A DNA stretch of 28,217 bases. Source: Candidatus Lloydbacteria bacterium RIFCSPHIGHO2_02_FULL_50_18. GTDB taxonomy: Bacteria; Patescibacteriota; Minisyncoccia; Phycocordibacterales; UBA6899. The stretch lies in assembly GCA_001821395.1 (NCBI GenBank), contig MHLM01000005.1, positions 1-28,217 on the forward strand, written 5' to 3'. A program made the translations under genes and the position numbers. The notes under the pieces are model-generated. The model did not search any database. It was not told the DNA's origin and worked only from the letters and a program-made list of their open reading frames with translations. How positions within the stretch are numbered: the stretch's first letter is position 1; each line of letters opens with the position of its first letter. This document shows, one piece after another, positions 5,692 to 28,217 of the stretch.

Positions 5692-5700
5692 AGGTCCGAA

Positions 5701-6750: not shown

Positions 6751-6769
6751 GGAAAATTGGGGCTCAAGC

Positions 6770-6778
6770 ATTGTAACA
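6770..6778 (-). promoter_or_regulatory. Extended -10 promoter element TGTTACAAT for the 350-aa surface-protein gene
   Basis: Plus-strand ATTGTAACA at 6770-6778 is the reverse complement of TGnTACAAT. It sits 19 nt upstream of the ATG at 6750. No convincing -35 was seen. Confidence 0.4.
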
Positions 6779-7278
6779 CATACAAAAAGCGAGTTTTTAG
6801 CGGGATAGGTAGACTGGGGACTAGCGGTGGATAAGATGGCGCTCGGGTTTTCTTCTTTTGAAAGGAACATCATCAATTTTTCCAGCAAAAATTGTGATTC
6901 TGCTCGGCAAGCCAGGCTTAGCCAGGGGCAAAGACCGAGCCCTGGCTCAGAAGCCTCCGCAAGTCCTTTCAAAAGAAGAAAAACCTCGCTTGGAAAAGGG
7001 CGAGTTCTGCGCTAGGGGCTCCGAAGCAACGAGTCTCTCTCGCTTAAAAAAATATGTGCTTCAACGCTGCTGGGGTACCGAAAGTATCTACTCACCTCGC
7101 TGAAGAGGAAAATGACGTATATTTCCGCATCCGAGGCGATTTCACAAAGCAAACACCCCTTTTAGAGAGAGATGGGGGGGGAACTGTGATACAAGAAAAG
7201 TATTTAGGTTACGGATATTCTTATAACTATACCACCAAGATTCCTATTACAAAGCCGGGTAGCACGTAAGGGAATTAT

Positions 7279-7345
7279 AAAATTCTCTTAAATTTTGATG
7301 CGATACGAGGCGCAAGCAAACAGTATCGAGGAGGCGTACTCAGGA
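7279..7345. repeat. Copy 1 of a ~65-bp intergenic direct repeat (partner at 7590-7657, ~85% identity)
   Basis: AAAATTCTCTTAAATTTTGATGCGATACGAGGCGCAAGCAAACAGTATCGAGGAGGCGTACTCA at 7279-7345 aligns with AAAATTCTCGTTAATTTTGATGCGATACGAGGCGCAAACAAGCAGTACCGAGGAGACGTACTCA at 7590-7657. CGATACGAGGCGCAA is identical in both. The copies differ by one 1-nt indel and a few transitions. Confidence 0.7.
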
Positions 7346-7589
7346 TACGATTTGAGCTCCATGAGACGGTTGAATTAAGTGAGATGCTATTTGAACTCAA
7401 ATACGCATATATTTTGGATGAGATGCAGTCAACGAAAAACAGCACGAATCATGTTCTATCAAGCGTTCACGTTAATTGGGATGCAATTTCGTGTTTTGCG
7501 CCCGAGCGATGCCGGAGAAGCTGTATGAGCTATACTGCTCCCCGACTCGTTTGGGTTGCAAAACGCGAAGTGTGCCAAATTGGGAAACT

Positions 7590-7718
7590 TAAAATTCTCG
7601 TTAATTTTGATGCGATACGAGGCGCAAACAAGCAGTACCGAGGAGACGTACTCATCGTACTTCTCCTCGGTCTGCGCAGTGCAGCAACGACGTAGCGCGC
7701 AAAATTAACGAGAATTTT
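7590..7718 (-). terminator. Compound stem-loop immediately 3' of the 625-aa gene. A 19-bp perfect inverted repeat encloses a 14-bp hairpin and the palindrome CTGCGCAG, and carries copy 2 of the direct repeat
   Basis: AAAATTCTCGTTAATTTTG at 7590-7608 is exactly complementary to CAAAATTAACGAGAATTTT at 7700-7718. Inside it, CCGAGGAGACGTAC (7638-7651) pairs with GTACTTCTCCTCGG (7657-7670) with one mismatch around loop TCATC. On the minus-strand transcript the outer stem ends in UUUU and the inner hairpin is followed by a U-rich stretch UACUGCUUGUUUG. Confidence 0.5.
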
Positions 7719-9596
7719 TTACCAGTAGGTGCGATCGGAGGTAATACCTAAGATAGTATTTTGTCCCAAGTAGTCACCCGAAACAGTGATGGTGCCCGGT
7801 ACCGCAATTCCCCAATGTGTCGTCTTGTATGCCTGAGTTGCGGTCGTTGTTGATTTTTCGATATGAACAGCAAACGTTGCTCCCGGGTTAGCGAGGAGTG
7901 AAACTGCTGATGCATACGCTATCGATGAGGTGGCATAGCGCTGATTTGCAACAACGATAGTATCTGTTGGTAGACCGGAACAAGCTGCGGGGTATCCAAT
8001 ACACATGTCTGCCCCATAGAGCGTCTCATCAAGACCAAGATTGCCTGCTGCGTACATGTCAGTACGATTGAGCGATGAGTTCCCTACGGTCCCTGAGTCA
8101 TTGCCCGGCTGCAATCCACCGTATGCGATCGTCGTCGTTGAAACACTGTAAGCAAGGAAACTCGTGAGCTCGTTGCCACTTGATGCATCCACTAGGGAGC
8201 TGGTGGCAAAATTATTATCGGCGGCTTGCGCCGAAGCGAGCCAGTTTTGCGCCCAATAAGTAGGGTCGGTAGCAGGACCACCGGTTCCGTCGGTCGCGTC
8301 AGCTACATACCAGAGCGGGAATGTACAGTTCCAGATAACGTCAGAATCACCTGTTCCGAGGCAGGAAGCTGGACTTGCCGTGCACGTCACGTTCCAAGCG
8401 ATACTCGTGGTTGCCGCAGCACCAGGGTAGCAGTTATTCGCATTATACCACTGAGACTTATCACAGAATGCGCTCGTGATACCGGAGCGATAGACATCGG
8501 TCAATCCGAAGACGATCTCATTCGTCGAGGATGCAGTCTGACAGCTGTTCTGGTCCGATACCGTATATTGGACACTAAAGCCCGGCGTTTGCGTTGCGAT
8601 ACCAGTAAGTATTAAATTTCCCGAGCCATCTGTATCAAGCAAACTAATAGAGGCAGCCGCGATCGTTGGTGTCATATTATTAACAATGAGCGAACGATTG
8701 GTCCCCTGCATTCCACCCAGGGCCGCGAGGCCACCATGGGCATCGATCACATAGCCATATGCGGCGAAGGTACCATCCGGGTCAGGATTTGGGAGGACAA
8801 CCGTTGTCGTTGGTGTTGCAGTAGCGAACGGCGAAACTCCCCATGTGCCCCCCGCTCCGCATGCTGTACCCGTAAAGTCTGCTGCTTTGCAGACGAACAG
8901 TTCAACAGTGTCAGTATCCGCACCTTGATACGTATCGGGGTCAGATGATGTCGCGTACCAATTGACCGTGCCTCCGGGATTCGTCGGTGAGTCATTCACA
9001 AAGAGCGTAAAGGTCGGACGATGATTCACTACAAACGGTGATGATGTTGTCCCACTACCTGATTTCGGCGTTGGATTGCATGCAGCGTTGACGGCATTTC
9101 CGTCGCAGATATACGCATACCAATCGTTGAATTCTGCACTAAATTGGGAGCCCGTGCCTTCAGTGGTCGTTGTTGCAACGGTTGACGTTGCCCCCGACAG
9201 TGTCGATGCAGACCGTATCCAGCGATTACTGACACCTCCCCCGCATTCCGGAGCTCCGCCATTCACGGGAGTTGGCGCAGACAATGCCTTACAAATGAGC
9301 AGGTAATAGTTATCTCCTGATGAGTCAGTGACGTTGGCTCTCCATGTGACATTTTGCGATACATTTGTTGGTGTCGACGTAGATGAACCCGGAGCTTCCT
9401 GCGCATCCCCATACGGACTATTCCATTGCGGTGGCGTATTTAGCACGGTAACTGAGGTCGTCGCATTATTTGCTAGGGCAACATTCCCACGAGGCACGTC
9501 GATGACAACTCCAAGCATGATAAGGCACACTCCAAGCAATGTAGTGGCAATAGTGATCTTCCCTCCGATCGTTGTATGAGAGTTTTTGAGCGTCAT
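7719..9596 (-). CDS. Secreted or membrane-anchored Ser/Thr/Gly/Asn-rich protein with many cysteines (625 aa); function unknown
   Basis: The N-terminal hydrophobic segment is KITIATTLLGVCLIMLGVVI. The body is low-complexity S/T/G/N/A-rich with many paired Cys (e.g. LICKAL...ECGGG, ICDGNAVNAAC). The ORF is long and uninterrupted. A TATAAT box lies 14 nt upstream of the ATG. Confidence 0.75.
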   Translation of the reverse strand: MTLKNSHTTIGGKITIATTLLGVCLIMLGVVIDVPRGNVALANNATTSVTVLNTPPQWNSPYGDAQEAPGSSTSTPTNVSQNVTWRANVTDSSGDNYYLLICKALSAPTPVNGGAPECGGGVSNRWIRSASTLSGATSTVATTTTEGTGSQFSAEFNDWYAYICDGNAVNAACNPTPKSGSGTTSSPFVVNHRPTFTLFVNDSPTNPGGTVNWYATSSDPDTYQGADTDTVELFVCKAADFTGTACGAGGTWGVSPFATATPTTTVVLPNPDPDGTFAAYGYVIDAHGGLAALGGMQGTNRSLIVNNMTPTIAAASISLLDTDGSGNLILTGIATQTPGFSVQYTVSDQNSCQTASSTNEIVFGLTDVYRSGITSAFCDKSQWYNANNCYPGAAATTSIAWNVTCTASPASCLGTGDSDVIWNCTFPLWYVADATDGTGGPATDPTYWAQNWLASAQAADNNFATSSLVDASSGNELTSFLAYSVSTTTIAYGGLQPGNDSGTVGNSSLNRTDMYAAGNLGLDETLYGADMCIGYPAACSGLPTDTIVVANQRYATSSIAYASAVSLLANPGATFAVHIEKSTTTATQAYKTTHWGIAVPGTITVSGDYLGQNTILGITSDRTYW

Positions 9597-9616
9597 AAAA
9601 ACGTGTCTATATTATA
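9597..9616 (-). promoter_or_regulatory. -10 box TATAAT with a very short leader for the 625-aa gene
   Basis: The minus strand reads cctgTATAATATAGACACGTTTTT-ATG. The hexamer is at plus-strand 9611-9616, 14 nt from the start codon. No SD was seen. Confidence 0.45.
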
Positions 9617-9866
9617 CAGGAGCAATGCAAGAAAGAATTCAAAGTTATACACAGTTTTGCATGTTTCGTAAGATCGAGATCGACATGCGAGCAAACAAAA
9701 TGACGTCATCAAGGCGAATGGTGAACGAAAATACAGATACAACTGACAGGTAACCCCTGCTCAAGGAGCAGGAGCACAAGCATGAAATGACCCGATACTC
9801 GAAAAAATCACTACCAAGAATTGAGCGCTCTTAAAATCGTTGGGCTCAAAAAATAACGACAGGAGA

Positions 9867-11075
9867 CTACTTATATCTGATAGCGTCAAGCGGGTTTAAG
9901 CTTGCAGCGCGTCTCGCCGGGAAAACTCCAGTAAGAAAACCGACGATCGCAGAAAATACGGCGATGAAGGTAAGGAAGGTCAAGGGGAACGAAAAGAGAG
10001 AGACGGATTTTCCGCCAAAATTCGATGCGGCGACGTTCATAATACTATTCAGCACAAACCCAATAGTCGCACCAAAAAGAATTCCCATGATCCCACCGAG
10101 AAAACCGACGATGACGGCTTCCGCAACAAAGAGGATCTGAATATCACCGGAAGACGCTCCGAGCGTACGCATGATACCGATCTCGGCAGTACGCTCCAAG
10201 AGCGTCACGGTCATGGTGTTGAACATACCGATAGCAGACACCGTGAGCGCGATGCCACCGAATACTGCGAGTACCGCCTGAATACCCTGGAAGATCTTGT
10301 TCGCCTGTTCGACCGTCTTTGAAAGTGCGGTCACGACATACCCCTTCTTCACGATCTCCGTTTGTGTGGGATCAAGAAAATCACTTTTTGTGATACGCAC
10401 CTGTACTTTGTCGTATGTTTTTGTTTGAACATGATTCTGCAATTCCGAGAGTGGGATGATTGCGGCAATAAAATTTTCTTCGTTGGTGACCCCAACAACC
10501 TTATACGATTTATCGATGGCGACCTGCTCGGATTCATCAGTCCCCTCTTTCAATATGAACACACGAAAGTTCACCATTTTACCCAATGCATCTTTCGGCG
10601 TATTTATTGCAAAGAGTTTGAGCACCGCCTTGGTGAGAATCACTCCATCCTTATCTTTCGCCTCATTCCCCGCAAGGAAAAGATCTCCGGCAACAGCTGT
10701 CGCGCCAGAGTAACGAAAAAACGCTGGTTCTGCCCCCTGCAGGAAAGCATTACCCGAAAGTCCTTCAATGGTGATGAGCGCAGGAAAACTTGCAAGGGGT
10801 GTAACGTCCTTCACGTTAGGAAGTGCCGCAAATTCTTTTATGGAACGATCAGTAAGCTGAACCGCTTTCGACGGAGGATTATTGACCGAAAGCGAGAGCA
10901 ATGTTTCGCCGAAGACGATCTGCTCGAGGATGATGTTCTGCAATCCGAAGCCGAGACCAACGAGGGTCACAACGGCACCCGTTCCGACGCCCATGCCGGC
11001 AATAGTAAGCCACGTACGAGCCGGATTCGTCTTAAACGCACGCGTCGACAGCATCGCAATATCTTGAAGTCTCAT
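9867..11075 (-). CDS. ABC transporter permease, FtsX/MacB family (402 aa; TM1, large extracytoplasmic domain, TM2-4)
   Basis: The N-terminal TM is WLTIAGMGVGTGAVVTLVGLGFGL. A ~230-aa soluble domain follows. The C-terminus carries three TM helices and the FtsX-family signature ERTAEIGIMRTLGAS. Confidence 0.9.
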   Translation of the reverse strand: MRLQDIAMLSTRAFKTNPARTWLTIAGMGVGTGAVVTLVGLGFGLQNIILEQIVFGETLLSLSVNNPPSKAVQLTDRSIKEFAALPNVKDVTPLASFPALITIEGLSGNAFLQGAEPAFFRYSGATAVAGDLFLAGNEAKDKDGVILTKAVLKLFAINTPKDALGKMVNFRVFILKEGTDESEQVAIDKSYKVVGVTNEENFIAAIIPLSELQNHVQTKTYDKVQVRITKSDFLDPTQTEIVKKGYVVTALSKTVEQANKIFQGIQAVLAVFGGIALTVSAIGMFNTMTVTLLERTAEIGIMRTLGASSGDIQILFVAEAVIVGFLGGIMGILFGATIGFVLNSIMNVAASNFGGKSVSLFSFPLTFLTFIAVFSAIVGFLTGVFPARRAASLNPLDAIRYK

Positions 11076-11091
11076 AGCTCACTCTATTATA
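11076..11091 (-). promoter_or_regulatory. -10 box TATAAT plus conserved ATAGAGTGAGCT spacer directly abutting the permease start codon (near-leaderless)
   Basis: The minus strand reads tcTATAATAGAGTGAGCT-ATG. The hexamer is at plus-strand 11086-11091, with a 10-nt spacer to the ATG. The ATPase gene carries the same 18-mer pattern. Confidence 0.5.
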
Positions 11092-11387
11092 GAAGAGAAG
11101 TGGACGAAGACCAAGTGTTCATACCTCATATCTAAGCTATCTCGCAGGAGCGACACGACCAATACCCTCCCCGACTCGTCTTGATCACAACAAAAAAGCG
11201 CATCGAATTTGAAAACCCTAGAGCAAGTCAAAGATTTGGGATGAAATGCACCACAGGAGTACTTCCAAATTTCAGTACTCGAAGACTCGATGAAATTTTA
11301 GGTCGCAGGCGTCAAGGAAGGCGCGTGCTATTTTTAAAACTCTCAGATTTGGATGAAATTCGGGTGCGGCGACTGTGCGGTGTCGGA

Positions 11388-11412
11388 GCGGATGTACTCA
11401 TTGTACATTCGC
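11388..11412 (-). other. Hairpin GCGGATGTAC-TCATT-GTACATTCGC, 48 nt downstream of the ABC ATPase stop codon
   Basis: The 10-bp stem has one G-T pair. Its stem top and loop (GTAC TCATY GTAC) match the hairpin at 7638-7670, which is also exactly 48 nt past its gene's stop. No U-run follows on the minus strand. Confidence 0.35.
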
Positions 11413-11460
11413 CCGACCCGCGCAGGAAGCCAAGCCCGAAGTTCGCCAAATGTGTGAGTT

Positions 11461-12789
11461 TTAATGGTGGGCTTCGCCGGTGCGCGGAATGCCTAGTGCG
11501 ATCAATTTCTCAATCAACCGCGAAACATCGAAAGACTGCTTCTTATTAAGCCCCACACCCCCCTCCTTCTGTGACAACCCTACCTGATCTGCAAATTCAT
11601 CACGCTTAATGAACCCTCCAATACGCTGAGCGATCGCATCTTCAAAATGTTGTTTTCCTGTTGCGTCAAGACTGAGGTCAAATTGTCCTGCAACAAATTC
11701 TGCTATACGATTGATAAACTCCATATTGCGGATCTGTACTCCCTCGCCGGTTTTTGCGCGGCGAAAACGTTGGATGTCGAGGGCGTGCTCATTGATGCTC
11801 ATGAGTTTTCCGGCCATCTCTGTTGCGCGAGCAACAGGAAGTCCGACTCCTCCCGTATCAAAATCAGCCATCAGCGAACGAAGATATGTTCCTCCCTCCA
11901 TACGCCCTGAGATGACTGCCTCAGTAATCTTCTGAAGCCGCGTGATCTGATCGAAGGTTAACTCCTCGATGAGATAGTTGACGATACTTTTCACTTGAAG
12001 CTCGTTCGGTGAGTCATATGGATAAATACGCGCGATCTGTTCAATTTCGGTCACGATAGTCGTGCCCGGTGCAAGTTTCAATATTTGTCTTTTTTCCGGA
12101 TTCGGAACGATGCGCTCGACGCGACCATCCGTCATATAAACAATGCGATGCGCGTACGGCAGGTACTTTGCGTCGTGCGTCACGAGGAGCACTGTTTTTT
12201 TGTCTTTTGCGTTGATCTCCGCCAATGTATCCATAACCTGAGCCGCAGTGATCGAGTCGAGATTACCGACCGGCTCATCAGCAATGAGGATCTGCGGATC
12301 GTTCACCAAAGACCGTGCCACTGACACACGCTGCTGCTGTCCACCAGAAAGAAGGGTTGGCCGCTTGTGAGCAACTTTATCGATCATGAATCGACGGCAA
12401 AGCTCCATCCCCCGGTCAAAGCGTTCACCCGGAGGCACGCCGTCAAAGATGAGCGGGAGTGCGACATTGTCGAGCACCGTGATCGATGGGATCAGATTGA
12501 ATGACTGATACATGATACCCATCGTCTTTCGCTGAAAGTGGACCATCTGCATCGGAGAGAAATCATAGATGCTTTCACCGTTCACATACATCTTCCCCGC
12601 GGACGGCTCAAGAACTCCGAACATACAATAGAGCAGCGTCGATTTTCCACAACCGGACGGCCCAAAAAGAATGATATATTCCTGGTCAAAGATCTCCACC
12701 GTTGCTCCCTTGTTCGCCTTAAACTCATTCTCCTTCCCAAGGTTATACGTGATCTCGATCTTGTCTCCAAATATAATCGGCTTTCCCAT
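11461..12789 (-). CDS. ABC transporter ATP-binding protein (MacB/LolD-like NBD) with a ~215-aa C-terminal extension of unknown function (442 aa)
   Basis: The ABC motifs are all present: Walker A GPSGCGKST, Q-loop MYQSFNL, signature LSGGQQQRVSVARSL, Walker B ILIADEPVGNLD and H-loop LLVTHDAKY. The ABC domain ends near residue 225. Residues ~226-442 (11464-12114) are charged, have no recognisable motif and read as alpha-helical. Confidence 0.9.
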   Translation of the reverse strand: MGKPIIFGDKIEITYNLGKENEFKANKGATVEIFDQEYIILFGPSGCGKSTLLYCMFGVLEPSAGKMYVNGESIYDFSPMQMVHFQRKTMGIMYQSFNLIPSITVLDNVALPLIFDGVPPGERFDRGMELCRRFMIDKVAHKRPTLLSGGQQQRVSVARSLVNDPQILIADEPVGNLDSITAAQVMDTLAEINAKDKKTVLLVTHDAKYLPYAHRIVYMTDGRVERIVPNPEKRQILKLAPGTTIVTEIEQIARIYPYDSPNELQVKSIVNYLIEELTFDQITRLQKITEAVISGRMEGGTYLRSLMADFDTGGVGLPVARATEMAGKLMSINEHALDIQRFRRAKTGEGVQIRNMEFINRIAEFVAGQFDLSLDATGKQHFEDAIAQRIGGFIKRDEFADQVGLSQKEGGVGLNKKQSFDVSRLIEKLIALGIPRTGEAHH

Positions 12790-12805
12790 AACTGACTCTA
12801 TTATA
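12790..12805 (-). promoter_or_regulatory. -10 box TATAAT plus conserved ATAGAGTCAGTT spacer directly abutting the ATPase start codon (near-leaderless)
   Basis: The minus strand reads taTATAATAGAGTCAGTT-ATG. The hexamer is at plus-strand 12800-12805, with a 10-nt spacer to the ATG. Confidence 0.5.
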
Positions 12806-12868
12806 TAGGAGCGAGGCGATTATGGACAATGAGCTTTACGCGGTCAGTGAATGAGCATCGAGCGGGGG

Positions 12869-12889
12869 GCCGCCCGTTAACGGTTCGGC
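12869..12889. promoter_or_regulatory. 21-bp near-palindrome GCCGCCCGTTAACGGTTCGGC (perfect 10-bp core CCGTTAACGG) in the divergent ABC/two-component intergenic region; candidate operator
   Basis: The sequence is read directly. The core 12874-12883 is a perfect palindrome and the flanks match 11 of 13 positions. It is centred 39-45 bp from the receiver gene's ATG and ~85 bp from the ATPase ATG. Confidence 0.4.
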
Positions 12890-12926
12890 ACTTTCCTGTT
12901 GAATAGTAAATTGTTACCATTGAACT

Positions 12927-13313
12927 ATGAATAATGAACAACACACCGTGCTTATCGTCGAAGACGACCAGATACTGCTCCGCATGCTTGCGAATATGCT
13001 CAAGGAAAAAGGTCTCATTGTGCTCGAGGCAAAGAATGGACTGGAGGGTATGGCGCAGATAGGTGCAGCAATCCCCGACCTCATGCTGCTCGATATCGAC
13101 ATGCCACAAATGGACGGAATCGCGATGCTACGCAACCTTAAGGAAAACAATATCAAGGTCTCAACACTCATGCTCACCAATCTGACCAATAGCACCTATA
13201 TTGCCGATGCCGCAGAACTCGGTGTCAACGAGTTTCTCGTCAAATCAGACTGGGAAATAGACGACATCGTCACAAAGGTCGAAGAAAAACTTCTTCGTGC
13301 ACACCACTCATGA
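12927..13313 (+). CDS. Stand-alone response-regulator receiver (CheY-like, 128 aa; no output domain)
   Basis: VLIVEDDQILLRMLANML carries the acidic pocket DD. The phospho-acceptor Asp sits in LMLLDIDMPQMDG. STLMLT and the conserved Lys in FLVKS are present. The protein ends right after the receiver fold. Its stop overlaps the kinase start (ATGA at 13310-13313). Confidence 0.85.
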   Translation: MNNEQHTVLIVEDDQILLRMLANMLKEKGLIVLEAKNGLEGMAQIGAAIPDLMLLDIDMPQMDGIAMLRNLKENNIKVSTLMLTNLTNSTYIADAAELGVNEFLVKSDWEIDDIVTKVEEKLLRAHHS

Positions 13314-14305
13314 ATGACCCGAAAAAAAAATCTTTTTTACGCCGCGTACTCTTCGCAAACTGCGACGCACTAGGAGTGGGGATCTGGTCCTGTCCAAGTT
13401 TCATCTTTCTCATCATGGGAGCGGTGATCATTGTTACTATCCTGACAACCTATGTGATCGCGGAACAACACGCTGATCCGGAAGTCGTGATCGCCATCGT
13501 AACACTGCTCACTGTTTTTCTGCTCATCATCACTCAGGTACTCGTCAACGCATTTGAAAAGATCGTGCGCAGTAGGCAGGTTGAAGCGGCTCGCACGAAA
13601 GAAGTCGCCGAACTCAAGGATCAATTCCTCTATCTCGCTGTTCACGATCTCGCCTCAGCGGCAACAGCGGTAAAGTGGGGTCTCAAAATGCTTGAACGGA
13701 ATCCGGATAAAACACAGACACCTTACGAGCAGGAAATTTTTAGCAGTATTCGTACGCGAAATGATCGACTCGTTACACTCGTTCATCAGATCGCCCTCAT
13801 CACACAGATTGAGCACGGAGAGATCATGCTCCACACTGAGCCAGTCCTCCTTTCGGAGCTATTGAATGATGCGATAAAGAAGCAGCGGGGAGGAGATGCG
13901 CCTGAACGCGCCGCTTGTAATATCGATATCGCACCACAACTTCCGCTCTTCATCACCGACAGAGATTTCTTCAACGAAATAATTGATACGCTTCTTTATA
14001 ATGCACGCATGCATGCTCCTCATGACGGATGCAACATAGCGATCTCCGCAAAAATTGAGGCCGATACGGTGCTCGTTGTCGCAGTGGAAAATAATGGTGA
14101 AGGAATACCCGCTGAACTCCAAGCGCATATCTTCGAAAAATTCTGGCGCAATGAAAAGACCGGGAAGATCGAGCGTGCCGGATTCGGACTCTATATTGCA
14201 CAGTCCCTCGCTCGTCTCCTCGGCGGGGATATCACCTTCACCTCTGACCCCACCATCACCTGTTTCACCCTTCGCCTCCCCCTCACTCCCCCCGTAAATA
14301 CCTAA
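13310..14305 (+). CDS. Sensor histidine kinase, intramembrane-sensing type (331 aa; two TM helices, almost no extracytoplasmic loop)
   Basis: The TM helices are FIFLIMGAVIIVTILTTYVIA and VVIAIVTLLTVFLLIITQVLV. The H-box is LAVHDLASAATAV. The ATPase motifs are N-box LLYNARMHAP, G1 VENNGEGIP, F-box IFEKFWR and G2 GFGLYIAQSLARLLGG. Confidence 0.85.
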   Translation: MNDPKKKSFLRRVLFANCDALGVGIWSCPSFIFLIMGAVIIVTILTTYVIAEQHADPEVVIAIVTLLTVFLLIITQVLVNAFEKIVRSRQVEAARTKEVAELKDQFLYLAVHDLASAATAVKWGLKMLERNPDKTQTPYEQEIFSSIRTRNDRLVTLVHQIALITQIEHGEIMLHTEPVLLSELLNDAIKKQRGGDAPERAACNIDIAPQLPLFITDRDFFNEIIDTLLYNARMHAPHDGCNIAISAKIEADTVLVVAVENNGEGIPAELQAHIFEKFWRNEKTGKIERAGFGLYIAQSLARLLGGDITFTSDPTITCFTLRLPLTPPVNT

Positions 14306-14313
14306 TTGCCCTA

Positions 14314-14352
14314 AAAACAAAAACCCACTGCAGCGCAGCGAGTTTTTGTTTT
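14314..14352. terminator. Candidate bidirectional terminator hairpin after the histidine kinase gene
   Basis: AAAACAAAAAC (14314-14324) pairs with GTTTTTGTTTT (14342-14352), an 11-bp AU-only stem with a 17-nt loop containing CTGCAG. ATTGCTTTT follows on the plus strand. The stem is weak. Confidence 0.35.
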
Positions 14353-14578
14353 ATTGCTTTTAAGAACTACAGAGCCGGAGTATTGGTGAAGTCGGAAGGC
14401 ACGTCGTAAATTCGAATGCCCTGCGAGGCAAAATAAAAATATGCAAGGAAGCCTTGAAACGCCCAAATTTGAATGCAGTACAAGACGTCAAAGAATGATA
14501 CCTCCCGAGACATACTCGGAGTACGACGAGCGGGGTTCATTCTGCAGACAACGAAATGCTGCGTCAAATTTGGACGTT

Positions 14579-16078
14579 TTATTTTCCGATGTTTTTGACC
14601 CATCCGAAGGTCCCCTGGAAGTTCTCAAGAATGATATCAATGATCGATTTCTCTTTATTCGGAGTGAATAAGACGAAGTTCTCTGATTTTGTTTTATTGC
14701 GTGCCTCATCACGACATTCAACCCAGAACTGATATACCGTTGACGGCAGGAACTCGACGACGACTGACACATGGTCAGTGCGCGGTTCCTTCTCTTCACC
14801 AAGTCCGCTCGGCTCGATCGCCGGGTTCAATCCTTCGCGATAAAAGAACTGACAATATGCCTGCTCGTCCGTTCCCCAGGAAACGATGGTCTGCACTTTC
14901 GCATCTGCGGAAGGAAACAGAGTTGATTCATTGGAAACCTTGGAGATGATGGGCGGAGCAATGTCCTTGATCGTCGTGAACGAGATCGGCGCTGATGTTA
15001 CTTTGTCTCCGACGATATTCTCGGCCTTCACGATGGCCGTATAGCGAAGACCGAGCGAAAGTCCGGCGATCTTCAACTGATGCGATAGTGCAAAGACCGG
15101 TGAACCCGCGGACTTCGCCTCCTTCGTCTTTGTGTTCGTATATTCGACGGTCCCGGCGGCAGGAATCGAGGTGCGCCATGCAACGGTCGCGGAATCTGCC
15201 TCAACTTTAATGATGCGGAAATTCATGATTGACGGCAGCTGTGCCTTCGTAATGAATGTATCATCGCGAGACTCTCCCGTGAGCCCGAGGTCCGAATCAG
15301 AGACGACCTGAAAATGGTGGAGGGTTCCCGGGGAAAGCCCGTTCACGCGCACAGAATGTTCACGCGTTCGCTCACCGGCATCACCGGATTCTGTGCTATA
15401 GGCCTTATCCGTTCCGGGACGATAGTCGCTATCGCGCGCATAGCGCACTACCCCACCGGCGTCCTGATCGGTCGACCATGTCACTATCGCATAATCACTC
15501 CCCACTTCTTTCACCCCCGGACTTCCGATGATGCGTGGCGCTTCAAGTACCTTCTTTGCGACATCATCAATTTCCTCGGACACAGCCCGGAGCCCCTCCA
15601 TGGACTTCAATTGACGAACGGAAGTGATGGCACGATCGACAATCACTCTTTCGTCTACGGGAATTTTCTCGAGTTCTTTTGCGCTCATGACACCCTTGGT
15701 CGTAATGGTGTAATCACCGGAAAGCGCCTGATTGCCCCCCTCGTCGGAAGAGCCAATACGCAAATGGTACATCGTTGACGGCTCGAGGCCTTCAAGAATA
15801 AGACGATGTGTTTTTTTATTCGGTATCGAGTCACGAATGACACCGTAGTCTTTTGTCAGACCAAAATTCACTTCCGAGTCCGCGTCCTCATCAGTATTCC
15901 ACGTGATAACAGAAGTCGTTGCATTCAATGAAACAATCTCAATATTCGACAATCTTGGGGGGATCCCGTCACCGGAAACTTGAGCGAACAAAGAGGCAGG
16001 ACCGAACAGGCCATACCCAATAGCACCTCCAACCAGAGAAAGGGATGCGAGGACTCCGAGTTTGTTCATGAAGCGCAT
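14579..16078 (-). CDS. Secreted protein with four Fn3-like repeats of the purple-acid-phosphatase N-terminal type (500 aa from the MRFMNK start)
   Basis: The track ORF 14579..16171 was trimmed to the ATG at 16078, where the signal peptide MRFMNKLGVLASLSLVGGAIGYGLF begins. Four ~95-aa repeats carry the T-W-x-T-D and ...V.YG motifs: SVITWNTDEDADSEVNFG, YAIVTWSTDQDAGGVVRYA, ATVAWRTSIPAAGTVEYT and TIVSWGTDEQAYCQFFY. Confidence 0.8.
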   Translation of the reverse strand: MRFMNKLGVLASLSLVGGAIGYGLFGPASLFAQVSGDGIPPRLSNIEIVSLNATTSVITWNTDEDADSEVNFGLTKDYGVIRDSIPNKKTHRLILEGLEPSTMYHLRIGSSDEGGNQALSGDYTITTKGVMSAKELEKIPVDERVIVDRAITSVRQLKSMEGLRAVSEEIDDVAKKVLEAPRIIGSPGVKEVGSDYAIVTWSTDQDAGGVVRYARDSDYRPGTDKAYSTESGDAGERTREHSVRVNGLSPGTLHHFQVVSDSDLGLTGESRDDTFITKAQLPSIMNFRIIKVEADSATVAWRTSIPAAGTVEYTNTKTKEAKSAGSPVFALSHQLKIAGLSLGLRYTAIVKAENIVGDKVTSAPISFTTIKDIAPPIISKVSNESTLFPSADAKVQTIVSWGTDEQAYCQFFYREGLNPAIEPSGLGEEKEPRTDHVSVVVEFLPSTVYQFWVECRDEARNKTKSENFVLFTPNKEKSIIDIILENFQGTFGWVKNIGK

Positions 16079-16093
16079 GCTCTCTATAGTATA
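16079..16093 (-). promoter_or_regulatory. -10 box TATACT plus ATAGAGAGC spacer abutting the Fn3-gene ATG (near-leaderless; same family as the ABC promoters)
   Basis: The minus strand reads gaTATACTATAGAGAGC-ATG. The hexamer is at plus-strand 16088-16093, 9 nt from the ATG. Confidence 0.4.
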
Positions 16094-16121
16094 TCGCAGA
16101 ACCGATAGAAATGAATAGAAA

Positions 16122-16150
16122 AACGCCGAACTCATAAAAAGTTCGGCGTT
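16122..16150 (-). terminator. Rho-independent terminator of the small beta-strand protein gene
   Basis: AACGCCGAACT (16122-16132) forms a perfect 11-bp GC-rich stem with AGTTCGGCGTT (16140-16150) around a 7-nt loop. On the minus-strand transcript it is followed by UUUCUAUUCAUUUC. Confidence 0.6.
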
Positions 16151-16180
16151 CACTGTGCATATCCATTCCACGCTGCGCCG

Positions 16181-16756: not shown

Positions 16757-19700
16757 CTATTGAGCAAAGAAGTAATTTGTCCCCGAGTGTGTACTCGCTG
16801 CAGTACCAAGCGGTACGGCAAGCCCCCAATAGATATCACGGAAAAATGCACTCGTTGATGTTGGTTTAGTGATGGCAACCGGGAAATAGGTCGGACTCGA
16901 TGAGGCGGACAGGATGTTGCATGTCGTACATGCACTATATGTGAACGTTGAAGTTGAATATTTTTGCTGACTGTAGGAAATAGAAGATGCACCTGCTGTC
17001 ATAGGATCCCCACCAATACCGAGATTAAGAACGGTATTACCAGTGTTATTGACTGTCGTCGTTGCGTCGGAAGCACCAGTGTCGGCACCCACGACAACGG
17101 AACCAAAACTGATGGTCGAAGACGCGCTCATGGCCTGGAGCGTAAGCACCTCTTGCGAGGCCGACATCGTGTCATATGAACTTGAGGTGTCCCACACGGA
17201 CAATATCGCCTGCCAATTATCCGCATTGAAATAACTCCCCGCATCCGTTGGATCAGCAAAGTATTTCATCGGTGCAGAACATGAAACCTCGCAACTATTT
17301 CCGGAGCAGCCATAGAGCGAGCATGATGATGTTCCGATCTGGTAACAATTATTGAGGTCTGCCGTACACGAACCTCCTCCTGCGACACTCGAACGATAGA
17401 AGGTCGATGATGCGGCAATAATATCAGCGTACCCGTTCAGGTCGGAGAGGGTTGCGGTTGCGCTGATCGTTGTCGTCGTACCTTCGGTGAGCGCGATATT
17501 GCTGTTCCCATTGAATGTCAGATCGGCGATAACAGGAGGATGGAGCACGGTCATTTCCGCGACTCTTGAATAGTTATCAAGCGGGGTGCCGGCATCGGTC
17601 GCACGGAAACAATACGCATTCTGCACTGCATATGCGGTCACCATTTGGAAGTTGTACTCAACCTCAGTGAACGATAATGCAGGGAGTGCCATCGGATTCG
17701 TCTGTATGGAGGCGTCTTTCATGATCTCGCCGTTCACGAACGTATGCAGCGCAGGAATCGAGAGTAACTGCGTGGTCGATGCTTTGTCGGTAAACTGTGT
17801 CGATGCCGCCATACATGCGGGACTCGTTCCGCACGAACCATTCGGAGTGACATCGATATAATTTCCTGTCGGTACCGATTCACAGTTCGGCGACGAAAGT
17901 TTTTCCGCTACCTGGAGTCGGAATTGTTTATTCGTGAGCGGAAGTCCGGAATTCCTGACCGTCATACGCAAGCGAATATTCTCGCCCGCAAGCTGGTTCA
18001 CGAGCACGGTATTCTCTGCCGCCTTCCATGTTGCTCCTGAGTCCGCCTGCTCAAGACCAAAATCAACGCCGGGGGCGCTTGAAATATATTGTCGTGCAGC
18101 AGGGGTATCCCAACCGCTGTGTTGATACCAGAATGTGAAGCCAACTCCACCGGATGTATAAGTAGAATCAACCGCAGAAGTCGTCGCAAAAACTGCCCCA
18201 GTATCGTCGTACACCGTGACATTGATCTGGTTATTTGAAAGCCAGTCAATGGATGTTTCATACCAATGTAATCCATTTGGCCACGTAACGCTTGTGGTGC
18301 CAATTTCTGACGCGCTCCCACTGTGAGAATTGTATGCCACGTTTTTTGCAATGGCTACCTTATCTGCTCCGGCAGCCTCAAGACAGACAGCGTAATTTTG
18401 ATGGGCGGTGATGGGCGACTGGATCGCGAACATGAAACATGGCTCATCAGAATTATCAGCTGTTATATTAATCTGCTGGAAAAATCGGAATGTCGTGTCG
18501 CGACCGACACCAGCCCCAACCTGGCCGATACCACTTGTATTCTGGGCGGTGGTATTTCCTGCCGAGGCAGAAAGTCCATAATTGCCCTCATGGTATATTG
18601 ATGCGCTATTCGCGAATAGCGAAACATCTCCGGAATATTCAGAAAGGTTATTGTCCTCAAAGTCATCGAAGAATTTGAAGGTTGAGGTACCGCTTGACCC
18701 GGCCGCAACACTTGCGTTGCCGTAGTACATGAAGATATCGGTCACGGCAGAGCCGGTAAGCGTAGGGACCTTCACCCAAACGGTCGACGAGCCGCTTGTC
18801 ACATAGGTTTCCACCCAATAAGGTATCGAGGTCGTACCGCCCGAGTCGGTAAAGCGCAGATCGTTGAAATTACTCTGCATGTCCGCATCATACGGCACAT
18901 TCATCTTTACCTGCGCGTTCGTAACGGTCGACGCCGAATTATTCGTGATGCGGACCCGCTGACGTTTTGACCAGCTCTGGCTGTACCATTCGGTCGCAAG
19001 CGCTCCCTCCCCTCCGTCGTCATTGCGCCAACGATACGTCTTCTGGTCGGAGAACAGACAGGAACTATCAGACCAACGGATGGAGCCGCAGGCATCAATA
19101 CCGTCGTTATCATACTTTTCACTTGCCATGTTCCCATGCTCATAGGTCCAGGTGATCGCATTCGTTGTCGTACCGATACGACTCACATTCGCACCGCCAA
19201 TAGCGGTCGTCGTTGCAAAGCGCACCTGCGAATACTGCGCCGACGCGTTTTGATCAATGGTCGATGAAGCGATAGTGATCATACTCCCACCATTCGTCGC
19301 AAGCTCGAAATCGCCATTATTCATTCCCGTGATCGTTGTCGTCCCGGTCAAATTGAGCCCCGTCGCATCAAGATTCCTGAATTGGTAATAGTTCGCATTC
19401 AAGGTCGCGTCACTCACCGTAAGACCGTAACTTCCGCTCGCAATACGATCGACCGTTGTTGATGCGGCGGCGACACCCACCATTTGCAGCGATGAATTCG
19501 TGCTGAACACTGCGGTTGCTCCCGCACCAAAGCGCACGTTGACCTGTCGAGCGCTTCCGCCTAACGCAACGCCGTCAAAGTTGGTCGCATAGCTCCAGTA
19601 GTCCGTTCCCGAGACCCTGGCATATGCTCCATAGATATTGAGTGCACCTGAAACAGCACCATGGTTCTGCGAGTAGAGCGATGCGTTCGCGGGGATCTGA

Positions 19701-22700
19701 TACGTTGTCGCGGACGAATTCCAGCTGCGAATATTGTTGTTTGCCGCTAATCGGAGTGTTCCGTATACATCACCACCCTGTGTCTTCGTGTTCATCGAAT
19801 AGCTTGTACCCGAGTACAAGGAGAGCGTGGAGCCGGTCCATGCCGTTGCCCCGCCGCCCACGAGATTAGTGAAGATGCCGCCCACCGCAAGCGAAGAACC
19901 CGACGCTTGAGTGAAGTTTCCGCTAGTTAATGTGAACGCATTCGTTGCTGTTGCATTCGCCCCGAAGCTTACTGTTGCTCCGCCGGTACCAAGCACATTT
20001 ACATTGTAAAGCGATGATGCGCCGAGTGCGACATTTTTTGTACCCGACGAAGGGTTAAAGGTGGCCGTCCCCGTACCCACAGATATCGTCCCGATCGCGA
20101 TGAAGTTTCCTCCCGCGACAAAATTTGCGAACGGCAACGTCGTCGAACCCGAAGCGAATATCACATCCCCGGTCGCCGTTGCATTCGCATCCAAGAACGT
20201 AAAGTCTCCATTATTCCCGACCAGGAAGCCGCCGAGTGCGGAACCATTTGTGCGAACGATGCGCCCCGTGGATGTAGCAGTCATCTTGAGTGTTCCATTG
20301 CTCGATGTGAATATTCCTCCCTCATTGTCAAAATCAGTTCCGACCGCAAGCGTGCCGGTCGGCAGCACGGCCGTTCCCGATGTGATGAGTATTCCCGCCG
20401 TCGCCGTCGCATTCGTATCAAGGAAGGTCCAACCCCCACCCATGCCCCTGAACTCGAGTGCATTAAACGATGAACCGGATGCACGAATATTCTTTCCCGA
20501 CGCTGTCGCAGTGAAACGCAGTGACCCTGAGTTATGCGCGAAGGTCCCACCGTTCGCATCGAACGATCCTCCGACGGCCATCAGCCAGGACGGAAGAATG
20601 ACGTTACCTGCGGTTATGGAAATATTATTCGATGTCGTCGCCACTCCACTGATATTCCACCCTCCGGCGGCACCACTGAATGTGAGATCGTAGAACGTAA
20701 GCGATGATGATGCGGCAATGAACTTTCCCGTAGTCGTTGCATTGAAGATAAATGTCGAGTTGGCGGGAGCAACCGAGGCTCCTGACCGGGCTAAGAATTG
20801 TCCGGCTAACGTAGCTGTTTCAGTACCGGTCGAACTCCATGTCGACGTCGCGTAAAGCTCCACTGAACCATCGATCGCACCACCCGCGTTCCCATGTATC
20901 GTGACATTCCCATTTGGAGCGAAGGTCTTCCCTGTCCATACGATGAGTTTTGTATTCGCACGAACTAAAAGTGTGTTTGGTGCGCCAAGTGATGCGGTAA
21001 ACGGAATATCCGTATCCTGATTTCCATCATAGATATCCATTGCGTTGATGGTTAGCGGACCTCCCTGCTCATGGCGAAGGATGACGCGATTGCGATACAA
21101 GTGCATATTGCTGATGTTCGTTGTCGGATCGTACGAGATATTTGCGGCGCTCGTCGTGCTATTCGTGTCGAGATAGAGCGTAAGCGTATCACCAGGATTA
21201 AAGACGACTGTTGAGATCGAGAACGCACCGGTCACAGCGTTACAGGCGGAGGCATACGAACCCGCACCCTGAACCTTGAGACGCACACTTTGTGTGACGC
21301 CGTTACACGTAGGACCGCCGATCGGCGTGTTCCCTTCATCGCTATACACATTTCCCGAAATGGTGATGCTGTTCGCGGAATCATCCCACACGATGTAGCC
21401 AGGATCTCCGCCCGGGTCGGAATCGTGCGATTCTCCCGCATAATTTCCAAGATCTGCGGGGGTACCGGCAAAACGCCAGATCGACGCAGTGATACCGGTC
21501 GCCTTCACATTGTAACCGGAAAGTACTCCTGTCGACGTGCTGAAATAATTCCGTGAAAAGATCTTAAGCGGATTTGCGTCGATCGTTCCGCCTGCGACGG
21601 TGATCATACTTCCTCCCGCAACCTGGAGGAGAAGGTCGGCATCATCAATCGCGTTCACCGTCGGAGTGCCGGTGAAATTGAGTCCATTCCCGTTGATACC
21701 ACGTACATGCAAATAACGCATCGTGGTTGACCCGCCAGAAATATTCATTGCGTATGTCCCTGCCGATTGCACATCAAGCGTCGTTGACGCCGCCCCGGCA
21801 CCGATGATCTCGAGTCCGCCGGTTCCTGAAACGGTCATCGTGGTCGCCGAAGCGAACCGCACATCAACCTGACGACTGCCCCCTCCCAGCTCGGTACCGT
21901 CAAAATCGTTCGCGTAACTCCAATAGTCTGTTCCTGACGAACGTGTATACGCTCCATATATATAGAGTGACCCTGTCGCGGCGGCATGATTCTGCGAATA
22001 CAAGCTGCCAGTCGAATGAATAAGCGTCGTCGTCGCGACGGAGTTCCACATATTGATCGCGGTATTTGCACCGATATTGAGCGTGTCATATCGTTCCCCG
22101 CCTTGTGACTTTGAATTCAACCCCGATGGAGCACTTCCATTCATGTAGAGTGTTGCTCCGGTCCACGTCGTTGCGCTCCCCCCTACCGCATTCGTGAACA
22201 CCCCCCGCACTTCGAGTGTCGTTCCCGAAGCCATCGTAAATTGCGAAAGTTCCGTGAGGGAGAAATTATTTGTTGCGGTCGCATTTCCCGTGATAGTCCA
22301 CCCTCCCGACGCACTGTTGAAATTCACGTTGTAGAATGTTGACGATGCGGTGGTGACCAAATGCCCCGTCGTCGTTGCGACGAAATTGACCGTTCCGCCG
22401 GAATGGGTAAATATTCCCGCGTTCACCCAATCGCGCGATGCATTCAGTGCGGCGAGATCGGACGCAATGAACGTCGTTGTAGCGCGGATGAAGACATCCC
22501 CGAGCATGTTAAGTACGGGGTCATTCGTAGCAGCCGTCACCGTCGCAGTATTCACCCCGTCACCGAGCATAAAATCATTGTTCACCGTAAACGTACCGGA
22601 CAGAAGCGTGTAAGTCGGGCCACCCGCCGCACTTGGTGCAAGGTACAGTCGATAGTATGGCGCGGGGGTGATATTTGTCGCGGTGACTCCGCTGTAACGG

Positions 22701-25700
22701 AAGGTGCTCGTCTGTGCATCGAATGTACCGCTTTGCACAAAAGGAGTACCGCCTCCGGTCAAATTCCATGTCGACGGAGTCCCGGCAAGCAACGTATGGT
22801 TACTTGCCACCGTCAAGATACCGGAAACATTCACCGTTGAAGATGCGGTCTTCGTCGTAGTGCCAACGCCTCCCGTGCCAAGGGTGAGATTTCCAAAACT
22901 CCAATCGGAAGTACCTCCAAATGTTCCTCCGTTCAGAAGTGTGAATGTTCCGCCCGTTAGCGCCACGGACCCGTTACCTGAGGCATTCGCTCCCGACACC
23001 GTGATCGGACTTGCACCGGATACTGTTCCTGCGGTGACGACGAAATTATTCCCGACATTCATCGTTTGATTCACTGACCAATTTCCGCCCGCTCCATTAA
23101 AGGTGGTATTCCAGAATGTTATTGGGGCGATCGCGGTGATCGCTTTTCCAGAGGTGGTTGCAGTGAAGGTGAATGTGGAAGAAGCCGCCGTAAATGTCGT
23201 GCCCGAATCGGCTGTCCACTTGCCTCCTACGGAGTGCGACTCGGCACCCTGTGCAGTAAAGACCGCGTTGTTGTCGATGTGGAATGAACCGTCCCAATTA
23301 TTCCCCGAACCCCCGGAATTAAGCGTGATATTTCCGTCGGGAACGAACGTCTTCCCTGTCCAGATCCAGAACTCGGTTTCCGGACTGACCGTAAGGGTGT
23401 TGGGTGCACCAAGTGTGGCGACGAACGGAATATCCGTATCATTTCCTCCGTCGTACGCATTCATGCCCAAAATGTTCATCGGTGTCACATCTTCGTGACT
23501 TACGATCACACGATCCTGGTAGAGCTTGATGCCCGAGAGGTCTGCGGCAGCGGACTTCGTGACATAGACAGCGCGCCTCCCGCCATTCGTATCGAGATAC
23601 ACCGTCATCACCGTATCTCCCGTGAAGGTAACACCGGGAACCGTAAATGTCCCATTGGCAGAACTACACGCCGCGGCAAAATTCCCCAGTCCGTCTACTT
23701 TCACTCGAACATTTTGTGTAACATCATTACACGTTGGAGCACCCATCGGCGTTACCCCTGCATCCGAATATACCGTACCCGAAATTGAAATAACAAACAT
23801 ACTATCGTCCCACCTAATATACCCGGGATCCCCCGCAGGATCATTATCGAACCTCTCTCCTGCGATGTTCCCGTAATGCTGCTTGAAGCGGATGAATGAG
23901 GACGCAAGCGGAGAGCCTGACTCGGTGACATTGTACGCGGCGATCGCCGTCGTCGTCGCAAAGCGCATATTGAATATTTGCATTCCCGCATTTTGATCGA
24001 CCGTGGTCGAAGCAATGGTCATCGCGCTCCCTCCCGCTTGCGCAACCTCAATGTCTCCAAATGAAAGCGCTGAGATGATCGTTGAACCGGCAAGCGAAAG
24101 ACCTGCAGCATTCATATTTCGCATCTGGTAGTACGCAGCATTCAATGTTGTCGAATTGAGAGTGATCCCGTAACTCCCAGACGACTGACGGTCAACCGTC
24201 GTCGATGCTGTTGGGCTTCCGATCATTTCAAGCGTCGTGCCGGTCGCAAATGTTGCAGTCGCCCCGGAGGCAAACTTCACATTTACCTGACGCGCCAGAC
24301 CGCCCAATGCTGCACCGTCAAAATCGATAGCGTGATCCCAATACTCAGTTGATGCGTTTCGTGTATACGCTCCCCAAATATCAAGCTCTCCGGGGACCGC
24401 ATTGTGATCTTGTGAATAAAGACTGCCTATCGCGTCAATGGCATATGTTGTTGCGGATGAACCCCACATGCGAATATGCGTATTTGCTGCGACGGAAAGA
24501 GTCCCATAAGTATCCCCGCCTGCCGTCTTGGTGTTGAGCGAATACCCCGCACCGGAATAGAGCGAAAGGTTCGAGCCGGTCCACGTCGTCGCTGCACCGC
24601 TGACCTGATTGGTGAACGTGCCGCCGACTGCTAATGTTTTCCCCGAAGAAAGTGTAAAGCCTCCTGCCGTCTTTAAGATGAGATCATGCGTCGTAGTCGC
24701 GTTCCCCGACACCGTGAACGTTCCCGCACCATTCACCTTCGCATCATAGAAGAATGATGTGCCGGGATCGATGGTCTTTACCCCCGAGGCTGCGGTAAAC
24801 GTGACAAGTCCGCCGGATGCAGTGAACAGACTTGAATTTGCGAATGAGCCGCCGATAGCGAATGTCCCCGTCGGAAGTGTGGTCGAGCCGGAAGTGAATG
24901 TCACGTCACCCGTCGAGGTTGCATTCGTATCAACAATCGTGAACCCTCCGGCTCCGGCGATCAGAAGATTTGCCAACGACGAACTGAGGAGTTTGATGGT
25001 CTTCCCCGCCCCGGCTGACGTCATCTTGAGCGTTCCGCTATTGGCGGAAAATGCACCGCTCTGATTAATGAAATCTCTCCCCACCGTCAGTGTTCCCGCC
25101 GGAAGGGTTGGCGTCCCTGCGGTGATCAAGATATCCTGCGTCACCGTTGCATTCGTGTCGGACATATTCCACGTACCACCCGAACCGGCGAAAACGAGAT
25201 CGTTCCAGGATGAACCATTCGCTCTCACCGTCTTTCCGCTCGCAGTCGAGGTGAGTCGAACGACGCCGGAATTATTGAGAAATGCACCGGCGGTCGTGTT
25301 GAATGACCCCCCGACCGCAAGCGTTCCGGACGGAAGTGTCGTCGTTCCAAGTGCGGAGATAGTGAGATCGTTCGTAGTCGTCGCATTGGTGTTCTGCCAG
25401 ATCCATGTGCCGCCGGCACCATTGAACGTCGTGTTATAGAAATTCGAAACACCCTGATTGATCGTCTTCCCGGGAGAGGTTGCGGCAAATGCGACCGTAC
25501 CCGTCTGCGCAGTGAATGTTCCCAGATTATTCCAATTACCGAGCACGGTGAGTGTATTGGCGCCACCGGCATTGATCGTATCATTCGCACCGATGGTAAC
25601 ATCGGTTGCTTTCACATTACTTCCCAGGGTAATGGTCTTCACGGTTCCATCCACGACGACCGTACCAAGATCCTGCCCTGACGAGCTGTCAATCCACGTT

Positions 25701-28217: not shown

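Follow-up and report, generated by a model that had tools for sequence, protein, structure and literature searches.

Three ancient C-A-B units of near-fixed spacing in a giant DUF2341-bearing protein of Patescibacteria, a probable β-helical adhesin stalk

The ultra-small Patescibacteria (the Candidate Phyla Radiation, CPR) are assumed to spend their lives in attachment to other microbes, and the molecules that make this contact are almost unknown. We analysed the contig MHLM01000005.1 of Candidatus Lloydbacteria bacterium RIFCSPHIGHO2_02_FULL_50_18 over its positions 1 to 28,217 (hereafter the window), whose right-hand part is filled by a giant open reading frame (ORF) on the minus strand. The encoded protein carries three tandem units of about 800 amino acids (aa), each composed of modules that we call C, A and B, and the third unit leads into a DUF2341 domain.

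Several described systems resemble this protein in part. Adhesins of the TpsA type (EtpA, FhaB and HMW1-type) begin with an N-terminal two-partner secretion (TPS; Haemagg_act) domain and have an adjacent TpsB gene of the Omp85 type, whereas the TPS domain has no Pfam match in the window protein or in its full-length relative L028, and neither POTRA nor Omp85 was found with Pfam among the window neighbours. Patescibacteria are generally regarded as having no outer membrane. The giant protein differs further from TpsA adhesins in that its relatives are membrane-anchored at the N-terminus, its predicted helix is split into three ancient units by β-sandwiches, and sequence similarity is undetectable. 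Autotransporters such as pertactin, Hap, Pet, UpaB, VacA, Ag43 and Fap2 possess a C-terminal β-barrel; in contrast, no Autotransporter match was obtained here with Pfam, the C-terminus is a soluble DUF2341 tail (the C-terminal 768 aa are without a PDB sequence match), and the polarity of anchoring is opposite, i.e. N-terminal. The predicted fold is also that of phage tailspikes, capsule depolymerases and the pectate-lyase superfamily, but no sequence similarity, catalytic motif, particle-binding or trimerisation domain was recognised, and each unit of the giant protein is a single chain of ~650 aa, with three in tandem.

MpIBP, SiiE, LapA and the Rib/Esp/Bap adhesins are likewise giant surface proteins in which central repeats act as an extender. 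Repeats of the MpIBP/SiiE/LapA/Rib type measure ~80-110 aa, are Ig-like and numerous, often have almost the same DNA sequence, and differ in copy number. The protein described here has instead three units of ~800 aa, 45-58% identical in amino acids and 53-59% in nucleotides (nt), in a fixed number; neither near-identical DNA repeats nor differing repeat numbers in close relatives were found. Closest in kind are the large (>4,000 aa) proteins of Patescibacteria with FhaB and/or DUF2341 domains, for which a role in adhesion or host interaction was proposed (PMC11809585). The window protein belongs to the same phylum and size class, and PF10102 (DUF2341) lies in a large anchored protein in this family too (E-value (E) 4.6e-22 in the window protein, 4e-24 in L028); FhaB has no Pfam match in either. 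No full-length homologues were reported for those proteins and rapid domain reshuffling was suggested (PMC11809585), in contrast to the conserved orthologous group, fixed architecture and synteny reported below. A role as a pilus-tip adhesin domain has been hypothesised for DUF2341 (PMC4858521), whose function is still considered unknown (PMC12505986). A paper on giant genes of Omnitrophota was discarded as a precedent, its proteins being unrelated. The giant protein thus resembles the stalks of TpsA and autotransporter adhesins without being a member of either group, and belongs to the loosely described DUF2341-bearing giant proteins of Patescibacteria; in the searchable literature, neither this orthologous family nor its B and C modules nor the fixed triple C-A-B architecture was found described.

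Three complete C-A-B units in a truncated giant ORF

The gene under study is located as follows:

16757-28217, minus strand: giant ORF, 5'-truncated at the window edge, with 3,798+ codons visible (16757-28153 in the ORF list)

No in-frame stop was found at 28216-28154 on the minus strand and the frame is open to the last base of the window, so the 3,798 aa are just the C-terminal part of the protein. An exact look-up of this ORF sequence gave no match, since the truncation makes it differ from the gene product as called. A locus of another Lloydbacteria genome (L004) is colinear with all 3,798 aa at 71% identity, the alignment being shifted by 2,159 aa and containing no more than 22 gap positions; the window therefore lacks 2,160 or more N-terminal residues, the membrane anchor among them. 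Gene calls of relatives reach 5,300-7,700 aa and begin, by inspection of the sequences, with a short basic segment and a hydrophobic helix (signal anchor), followed by acidic or Pro/Thr-rich linkers. Inspection of the translation revealed neither a hydrophobic anchor nor a sorting motif at the C-terminus of the window protein. DUF2341 is the sole Pfam match of the giant protein (hmmscan, E up to 1) besides a sub-threshold Rib match; no match was returned by NCBIfam, nor by searches of the PDB with the sequences of the whole protein and of the C-terminal tail or with profiles of B and of the C sandwich. Weak matches to SH2 and fucose-lectin domains (E 0.07-1) were taken as chance.

An earlier examination of the DNA by a model without database searches (the sequence-only reading) had proposed three ancient tandem units of ~2.3-2.4 kb at ~50% protein identity, maintained over time and not due to recent slippage. 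The motif positions on which it relied all hold within about 25 nt: LYSQ[DN]H is found at aa 1245, 2051 and 2826 (nt 24421, 22003 and 19678), GYI[RV]WDDS at aa 1444 and 2252 (nt 23824 and 21400) and PTCN at aa 1473 and 2281, while the diverged counterpart IRWSDSSC that it placed in unit 3 near 19060 corresponds to IRWSDSS at aa 3025 (nt 19081). It had also named beforehand, as the test by which the repeat would stand or fall, a self-comparison for lines at an offset of ~800 aa. BLASTP of overlapping protein chunks against the protein itself (the whole-protein run yielded the identity match alone) produced such lines at 806 aa (aa 1206-1600 versus 2012-2408, 46% identity, E 3e-111), 775 aa (45-47% identity, E 1e-52 to 3e-63) and ~1580 aa (aa 1001-1400 versus 2581-2981, 55% identity, E 3e-123), all far above chance. 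The units share 45-58% protein identity, and the DNA of the B copies is 53-59% identical. The longest exact DNA run common to two units is 14-17 nt, and the best DNA repeat in a search of the window covers 82 nt at 70-72% identity. This degree of divergence, together with positional orthologues in 44 genomes, bears out the proposed age of the units and their maintenance, by selection.

Profile hidden Markov models (HMMs) were built from the internal copies plus database homologues and used to delimit B (~285 aa; aa 1166-1451, 1971-2259 and 2746-3030) and C (~205 aa; aa 1453-1657 and 2261-2464). All modules are on the minus strand:

26066-26524, minus strand: C0, a diverged PTCN-type module opening unit 1 (aa 544-696), without the two cysteines (C-HMM independent E 2e-7)
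24662-26065, minus strand: A1, β-helix region of unit 1 (aa 697-1164) with 76-77-aa repeats (repeat-HMM at aa 706, 850, 923, 1001, 1077 and 1151)
23801-24661, minus strand: B1, YSQ(D/N)H module (aa 1165-1451), ending in GDPGYIRWDDS (B-HMM 423.8 bits, E 1.6e-131)
23183-23800, minus strand: C1, PTCN module (aa 1452-1657), a β-sandwich of ~100 aa and then the restart of the β-helix (C-HMM 321.5 bits; DSSP on the model)
22244-23182, minus strand: A2, β-helix region of unit 2 (aa 1658-1970), more diverged (repeat-HMM at aa 1626, 1885 and 1957, weak at 1784)
21377-22243, minus strand: B2, YSQNH module (aa 1971-2259; B-HMM 389.2 bits)
20762-21376, minus strand: C2, PTCN module (aa 2260-2464; C-HMM 300.1 bits), its β-sandwich being residues 1-100 of model m343c93db1d05
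19919-20761, minus strand: A3, β-helix region of unit 3 (aa 2465-2745) with clean 76-aa repeats (repeat-HMM at aa 2431, 2505, 2581, 2657 and 2733)
19064-19918, minus strand: B3, YSQNH module (aa 2746-3030), ending in GSIRWSDS and leading into DUF2341 (B-HMM 396.5 bits)
18644-18871, minus strand: DUF2341 (aa 3095-3170; Pfam PF10102, E 4.6e-22)
16760-19063, minus strand: conserved C-terminal tail of ~765 aa that holds DUF2341 and whose length is kept in relatives

The array thus reads C0-A1-B1, C1-A2-B2, C2-A3-B3 and then DUF2341, that is, three complete C-A-B units. This phase follows from the position of C0 ahead of unit 1 and from the one-unit relatives, which order C before B (24 'CB' architectures). 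The statement of the sequence-only reading that unit 3 lacks the PTCN module was an artefact of an A-B-C phasing, in which the diverged C0 went unnoticed; its observation that unit 3 runs into DUF2341 applies to all relatives, where B3 is followed by this domain. The assignment of C0 was strengthened by an hhalign comparison of its 44 orthologues, which are 52% identical among themselves, with 88 C1/C2 sequences (probability 98.9%, E 2.3e-17, 126 columns, 21% identity).

Region A consists of 76-77-aa repeats, five to six in unit 1 (where self-BLAST gave offsets of 77, 154 and 230), about three to four in unit 2 and five in unit 3, and the same periodicity continues for ~70 aa into either neighbour, at the end of C and at the start of B. 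Besides SLYSQ(D/N)H and GDPGYI(R/V)WDDS, B carries a DFDG motif, and ~43 of its columns are ≥93% identical across 132 copies, including many aromatics; among the invariant residues are Y1216, W1230, Y1246, S1247, W1272, D1277, F1278, D1279, R1288, E1433, D1436 and D1438. In C, Cys1475 (within PTCN) and Cys1496 are 100% conserved in the 88 C1/C2 copies and would probably form a disulfide. Upstream of C0 (window 26954-28033, aa 41-400 of the visible ORF), weak repeats of ~99 aa were also observed, with 22-27% identity at offsets of 99 and 198.

Age, copy number and spacing of the units

Relatives were collected in three ways. A word-indexed protein search with B1C1 gave 23 CPR proteins, mostly fragmentary; a pattern scan using the trimmed B-module alignment, with one genome per GTDB species, gave 71 loci; and a B-profile search of 1.84 billion cluster representatives (50% identity) gave 370 proteins at E ≤1e-3, 194 of them at ≤1e-30. 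Almost all of the 71 loci are labelled Lloyd-, Kaiser- or Adlerbacteria, Paceibacterota, Parcubacteria, Patescibacteria, 'Saccharibacteria' or 'bacterium'. Three (L009, L045 and L067) come from metagenome-assembled genomes labelled Neomarinimicrobiota, Planctomycetota and Gammaproteobacteria, which may reflect mis-binning or real transfer.

The copies are orthologous by position. Across 44 genomes, the nearest foreign copy occupies the same position for 130 of the 132 B modules and for all 132 C modules. When all ordered genome pairs are considered, B finds its best match at the same position in 75-78% of cases, and C0, C1 and C2 do so in 100%, 80% and 93%, respectively; 33% would be expected by chance, and even the most divergent pairs reach 63%. 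The triplication is therefore older than the sampled radiation: as judged from these sequence comparisons, it preceded the divergence of these Parcubacteria/Paceibacteria lineages, and three copies at near-fixed spacing have been held since. In the clade of the window, B1 and B3 (identity 0.58-0.60) resemble one another more than they resemble B2. Within a genome, B paralogues reach 62-79% identity at five loci (L016, L017, L012, L033 and L068) against ~45-55% elsewhere, a pattern which suggests that episodic, lineage-specific gene conversion may have acted between units with copy number unchanged.

The number of units hardly varies. C-B-C-B-C-B is the score of 43 of the 71 loci, which cover the region, with several more missing the weak C0 match only, and of 31 cluster representatives; all Met-initiated, repeat-bearing gene calls longer than 5,300 aa (n=27) give the same result save one, C-B-C-B-C. 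The exceptions are a two-unit locus (L042), a four-unit locus with different spacing (L067), an internal deletion (L039) and an ORF broken by a stop (L058). Spacing is comparably tight in the 44 genomes: 621-644 aa from C0 to B1 (about 963-994 in four loci), 792-828 aa from B1 to B2 (about 1,113-1,117 in three loci), 762-775 aa from B2 to B3 in all 44, and 755-779 aa for the tail after B3 in 42, the other two being contig-truncated loci. A large tandem repeat frozen in number and length over such a long evolution contrasts with the usual unstable repeats of adhesins.

Length variation in the family, located in unit 1, stems in fact from a DUF2341-like module and not from the C-A-B unit. Family-wide, the C0-to-B1 interval falls into classes of ~632, 985, 1,350 and 1,696 aa, corresponding to 0-3 inserted copies of a module of 340-350 aa that resembles the DUF2341 region and recurs in the N-terminal region. 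Carriers of one to three copies include the proteins P0057 (aa 3700-4960), P0044, P0061 and P0052 and the loci L055, L057, L061 and L069. An explanation of the longer unit 1 by extra 77-aa repeats was rejected, as these repeats are no more numerous there and the inserted material is the DUF2341-like module. Many 'single-B' matches were likewise rejected as a sign of wide copy-number variation, since several proteins of ~1,100 aa are fragments (B3, DUF2341 and tail); one- and two-unit architectures were accordingly counted as true only if Met-initiated, N-terminally anchored and provided with a different C-terminus. In six membrane-anchored proteins of 2,200-5,200 aa (P0089, P0098, P0102, P0097, P0066 and P0069), one or two C-A-B units, or a single B, are combined with another conserved C-terminus (...AGDYQTE..YIVVPTY), and the C-A-B unit is therefore reused in other architectures.

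The closest DNA relative of the window (L072; LCOM01000053.1, Parcubacteria GW2011_GWA2_47_7, 1-10552) is 74% identical at the nucleotide level and colinear save for small indels and frameshifts. Its giant gene is called as three consecutive ORFs of 1,664, 477 and 1,383 aa owing to frame changes, and the same contig appears in two Logan assemblies; two explanations are conceivable, a pseudogene or genuine frameshifts that assemble reproducibly. A metagenome scan for strain-level variants returned none: five loci were found, the nearest of which is this same GW2011_GWA2_47_7 contig.

Predicted fold and possible roles

AlphaFold2 models were obtained for B1C1 (m69dc766dd300, aa 1165-1720; mean predicted local distance difference test score (pLDDT) 90.6, predicted template modelling score (pTM) 0.83) and for C2A3B3 (m343c93db1d05, aa 2260-3040; mean pLDDT 85.5, pTM 0.74). 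Both are all-β, and the predicted fold is that of a right-handed parallel β-helix, with three-strand rungs coiled into a long right-handed solenoid. In the second model, residues 1-100 form a seven-strand sandwich and residues ~120-770 a succession of regular strands of 3-5 residues, short throughout A3 and longer in B. In GDPGYIRWDDS, IRW makes up the final short strand of the helix and is directly adjoined by the first strand of the next sandwich or, after B3, by DUF2341. No sequence match to curated β-helix families (Pfam Beta_helix, Pectate_lyase_3, CASH/PbH1) was obtained with hmmscan (E up to 1), NCBIfam or PDB profile searches. The best structural match is EtpA, a non-enzymatic adhesin. 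Foldseek found nothing in the PDB at E ≤1e-3 with the two-domain model; local matches of the sandwich over ~100 columns (probability 0.93-0.97, E non-significant) to transthyretin/CarboxypepD_reg/Cna-B-like domains (DUF3823, a rhamnogalacturonan lyase domain, SdrD B) hint that the PTCN sandwich may fall in the transthyretin-like fold class.

These features lead us to consider that the ancient, fixed triple array most likely builds a fixed-length extracellular stalk of a host-contact adhesin, with a probability of roughly 0.65. The giant protein would be inserted by the Sec pathway and held by its N-terminal membrane anchor. Each unit would comprise a β-sandwich of ~100 aa followed by one long right-handed parallel β-helix (A) closing in the wider, conserved B (~285 aa), and the three β-helix units, jointed by the small sandwiches, would constitute a rigid extracellular stalk holding the DUF2341-containing C-terminal head away from the cell. 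The mode of action would be comparable to that of the β-helical passenger or exoprotein domains of Gram-negative adhesins, but with a Sec-anchored protein in a CPR cell. Textbook values for a β-helix are three rungs per 77-aa repeat and 4.8 Å per rung. Derived from these values, the length is a rough estimate of ~11-13 nm per unit and perhaps ~35-50 nm for the three units plus sandwiches. The 'modular stalk of variable length' of the sequence-only reading thus survives in part: the predicted rod-like β-helix fits a stalk, but the number and spacing of units are nearly fixed. The repeat itself would be a variation on the well-known theme of β-helical adhesin stalks, unsurprising in giant surface proteins. 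What is new is a widespread family of probable giant surface proteins, dark to Pfam, with defined module bounds, high-confidence models and a conserved gene cluster, which offers a testable handle on CPR host contact.

Three observations weigh against a simple stalk kept at three units. The invariant polar and aromatic residues of B exceed the apparent needs of a pure spacer and could mark a ligand-binding or catalytic site; the identity of paralogues within a genome spans 0.42-0.79, reaching 0.62-0.79 in some lineages, which indicates that the units are not fully insulated from each other; and the taxonomic labels are generic on many loci.

Going beyond the stalk reading, it is conceivable, though we would put it forward only tentatively, that the near-invariant length from C0 to the C-terminus is itself under selection. 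The protein would then serve as a strut or molecular ruler in a dedicated organelle by which Parcubacteria-type episymbionts contact their hosts, built with the fn3-domain protein, the MacB-type (mechanotransmission) ATP-binding cassette (ABC) transporter and the o625 protein encoded downstream, and the B modules might represent distinct ligand-binding stations. In the majority, which has the short form, this segment measures ~3,250 aa; between lineages with an identity of only ~50%, the length of the third unit differs by no more than ~15 aa and that of the tail by ~25 aa.

The residues of B also bear on the chief alternative to the stalk, which we regard as rather unlikely, namely that each unit is a glycan-binding or glycan-cleaving β-helix akin to tailspikes, pectate/alginate lyases or CASH-type domains. 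Three sites would then act on host cell-wall or capsule polysaccharide and would have been kept for multivalency or for their specificities, not for length. The ~43 nearly invariant B columns, including D1277, D1279, R1288, E1433, D1436, D1438 and many aromatics, speak in its favour, as does the fact that the three positions have remained distinguishable over a long time, as if each had its own specificity. The β-helix fold alone does not decide between a stalk and a glycan site. However, B and C are without a match in Pfam, NCBIfam and PDB, the best structural match is to the non-enzymatic EtpA, and catalysis does not explain the near-invariant spacing.

Much less probable is the view of the sequence-only reading that the array is a hotspot of recombination, a contingency-type locus in which unequal crossing-over would alter stalk length between strains. 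Tandem homologous units are indeed present, one two-unit and one four-unit variant exist, paralogue identity of up to 0.79 in some lineages suggests occasional gene conversion, and domain reshuffling has been speculated upon for large proteins of Patescibacteria (PMC11809585). The comparison of unit numbers in related genomes, which had been advised as a check for variation, nevertheless yielded three units in nearly all loci and in all but one of the full-length giant gene calls. The B2-B3 spacing stays at 762-775 aa in 44 genomes, the closest relatives (L004 at 71% aa, L072 at 74% nt) are colinear, and the length variation that exists involves another module. RecA-type recombination needs roughly 20-30 bp of identity, and the exact matches of 14-17 nt between units, with B copies at 53-59% DNA identity, lie below this need. 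The idea of a likely hotspot was consequently abandoned.

An assembly artefact or recent slippage duplication can be practically dismissed. In its favour, metagenome assemblies frequently break or collapse where giant genes hold repeats, fragments are common among the database homologues, and frameshifts split one relative. Against it stand the divergence of the copies at 41-47% of their nucleotides, an unbroken ORF of 11.4 kb and the same three-unit layout, assembled independently in >40 genomes from many studies.

Gene neighbourhood

Downstream of the giant gene, the same strand encodes the following proteins:

14579-16171, minus strand: 530-aa protein with fn3 and purple-acid-phosphatase-N-like (PAP-N-like) domains (Pfam)
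9867-12789, minus strand: MacB-type ABC transporter pair, with the ATPase at 11461-12789 and the MacB_PCD/FtsX permease at 9867-11075 (Pfam)
7719-9596, minus strand: o625, a 625-aa membrane-anchored protein, found in 27 related loci

In 51 of the 71 loci, the gene next downstream of the giant gene is the fn3/PAP-N-like one. The ABC ATPase is present in 44 related loci and the permease in at least 17, a count bounded by locus length; a histidine-kinase-like protein is also among the neighbours of the giant gene. The last ~200 aa of o625 and of the giant protein are weakly homologous and contain cysteines (27% identity, E 3e-7; 7797-8408 versus 16811-17392, both minus), both proteins terminate in WG[IL]AVP, and tblastn recovered the same C-terminal relation in the loci L022, L029 and L058. 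This conserved gene order (window 7719-16171; loci L002-L059) suggests that the genes make up a functional cluster.

Near this cluster, at 532-1209 (plus strand) and 4480-5691 (minus strand) of the window, small secreted proteins are encoded in which dockerin domains, weak cohesin matches and a DUF4215 domain occur and which resemble parts of a cellulosome-like assembly. Domains of the dockerin/cohesin type occur in other CPR genomes.

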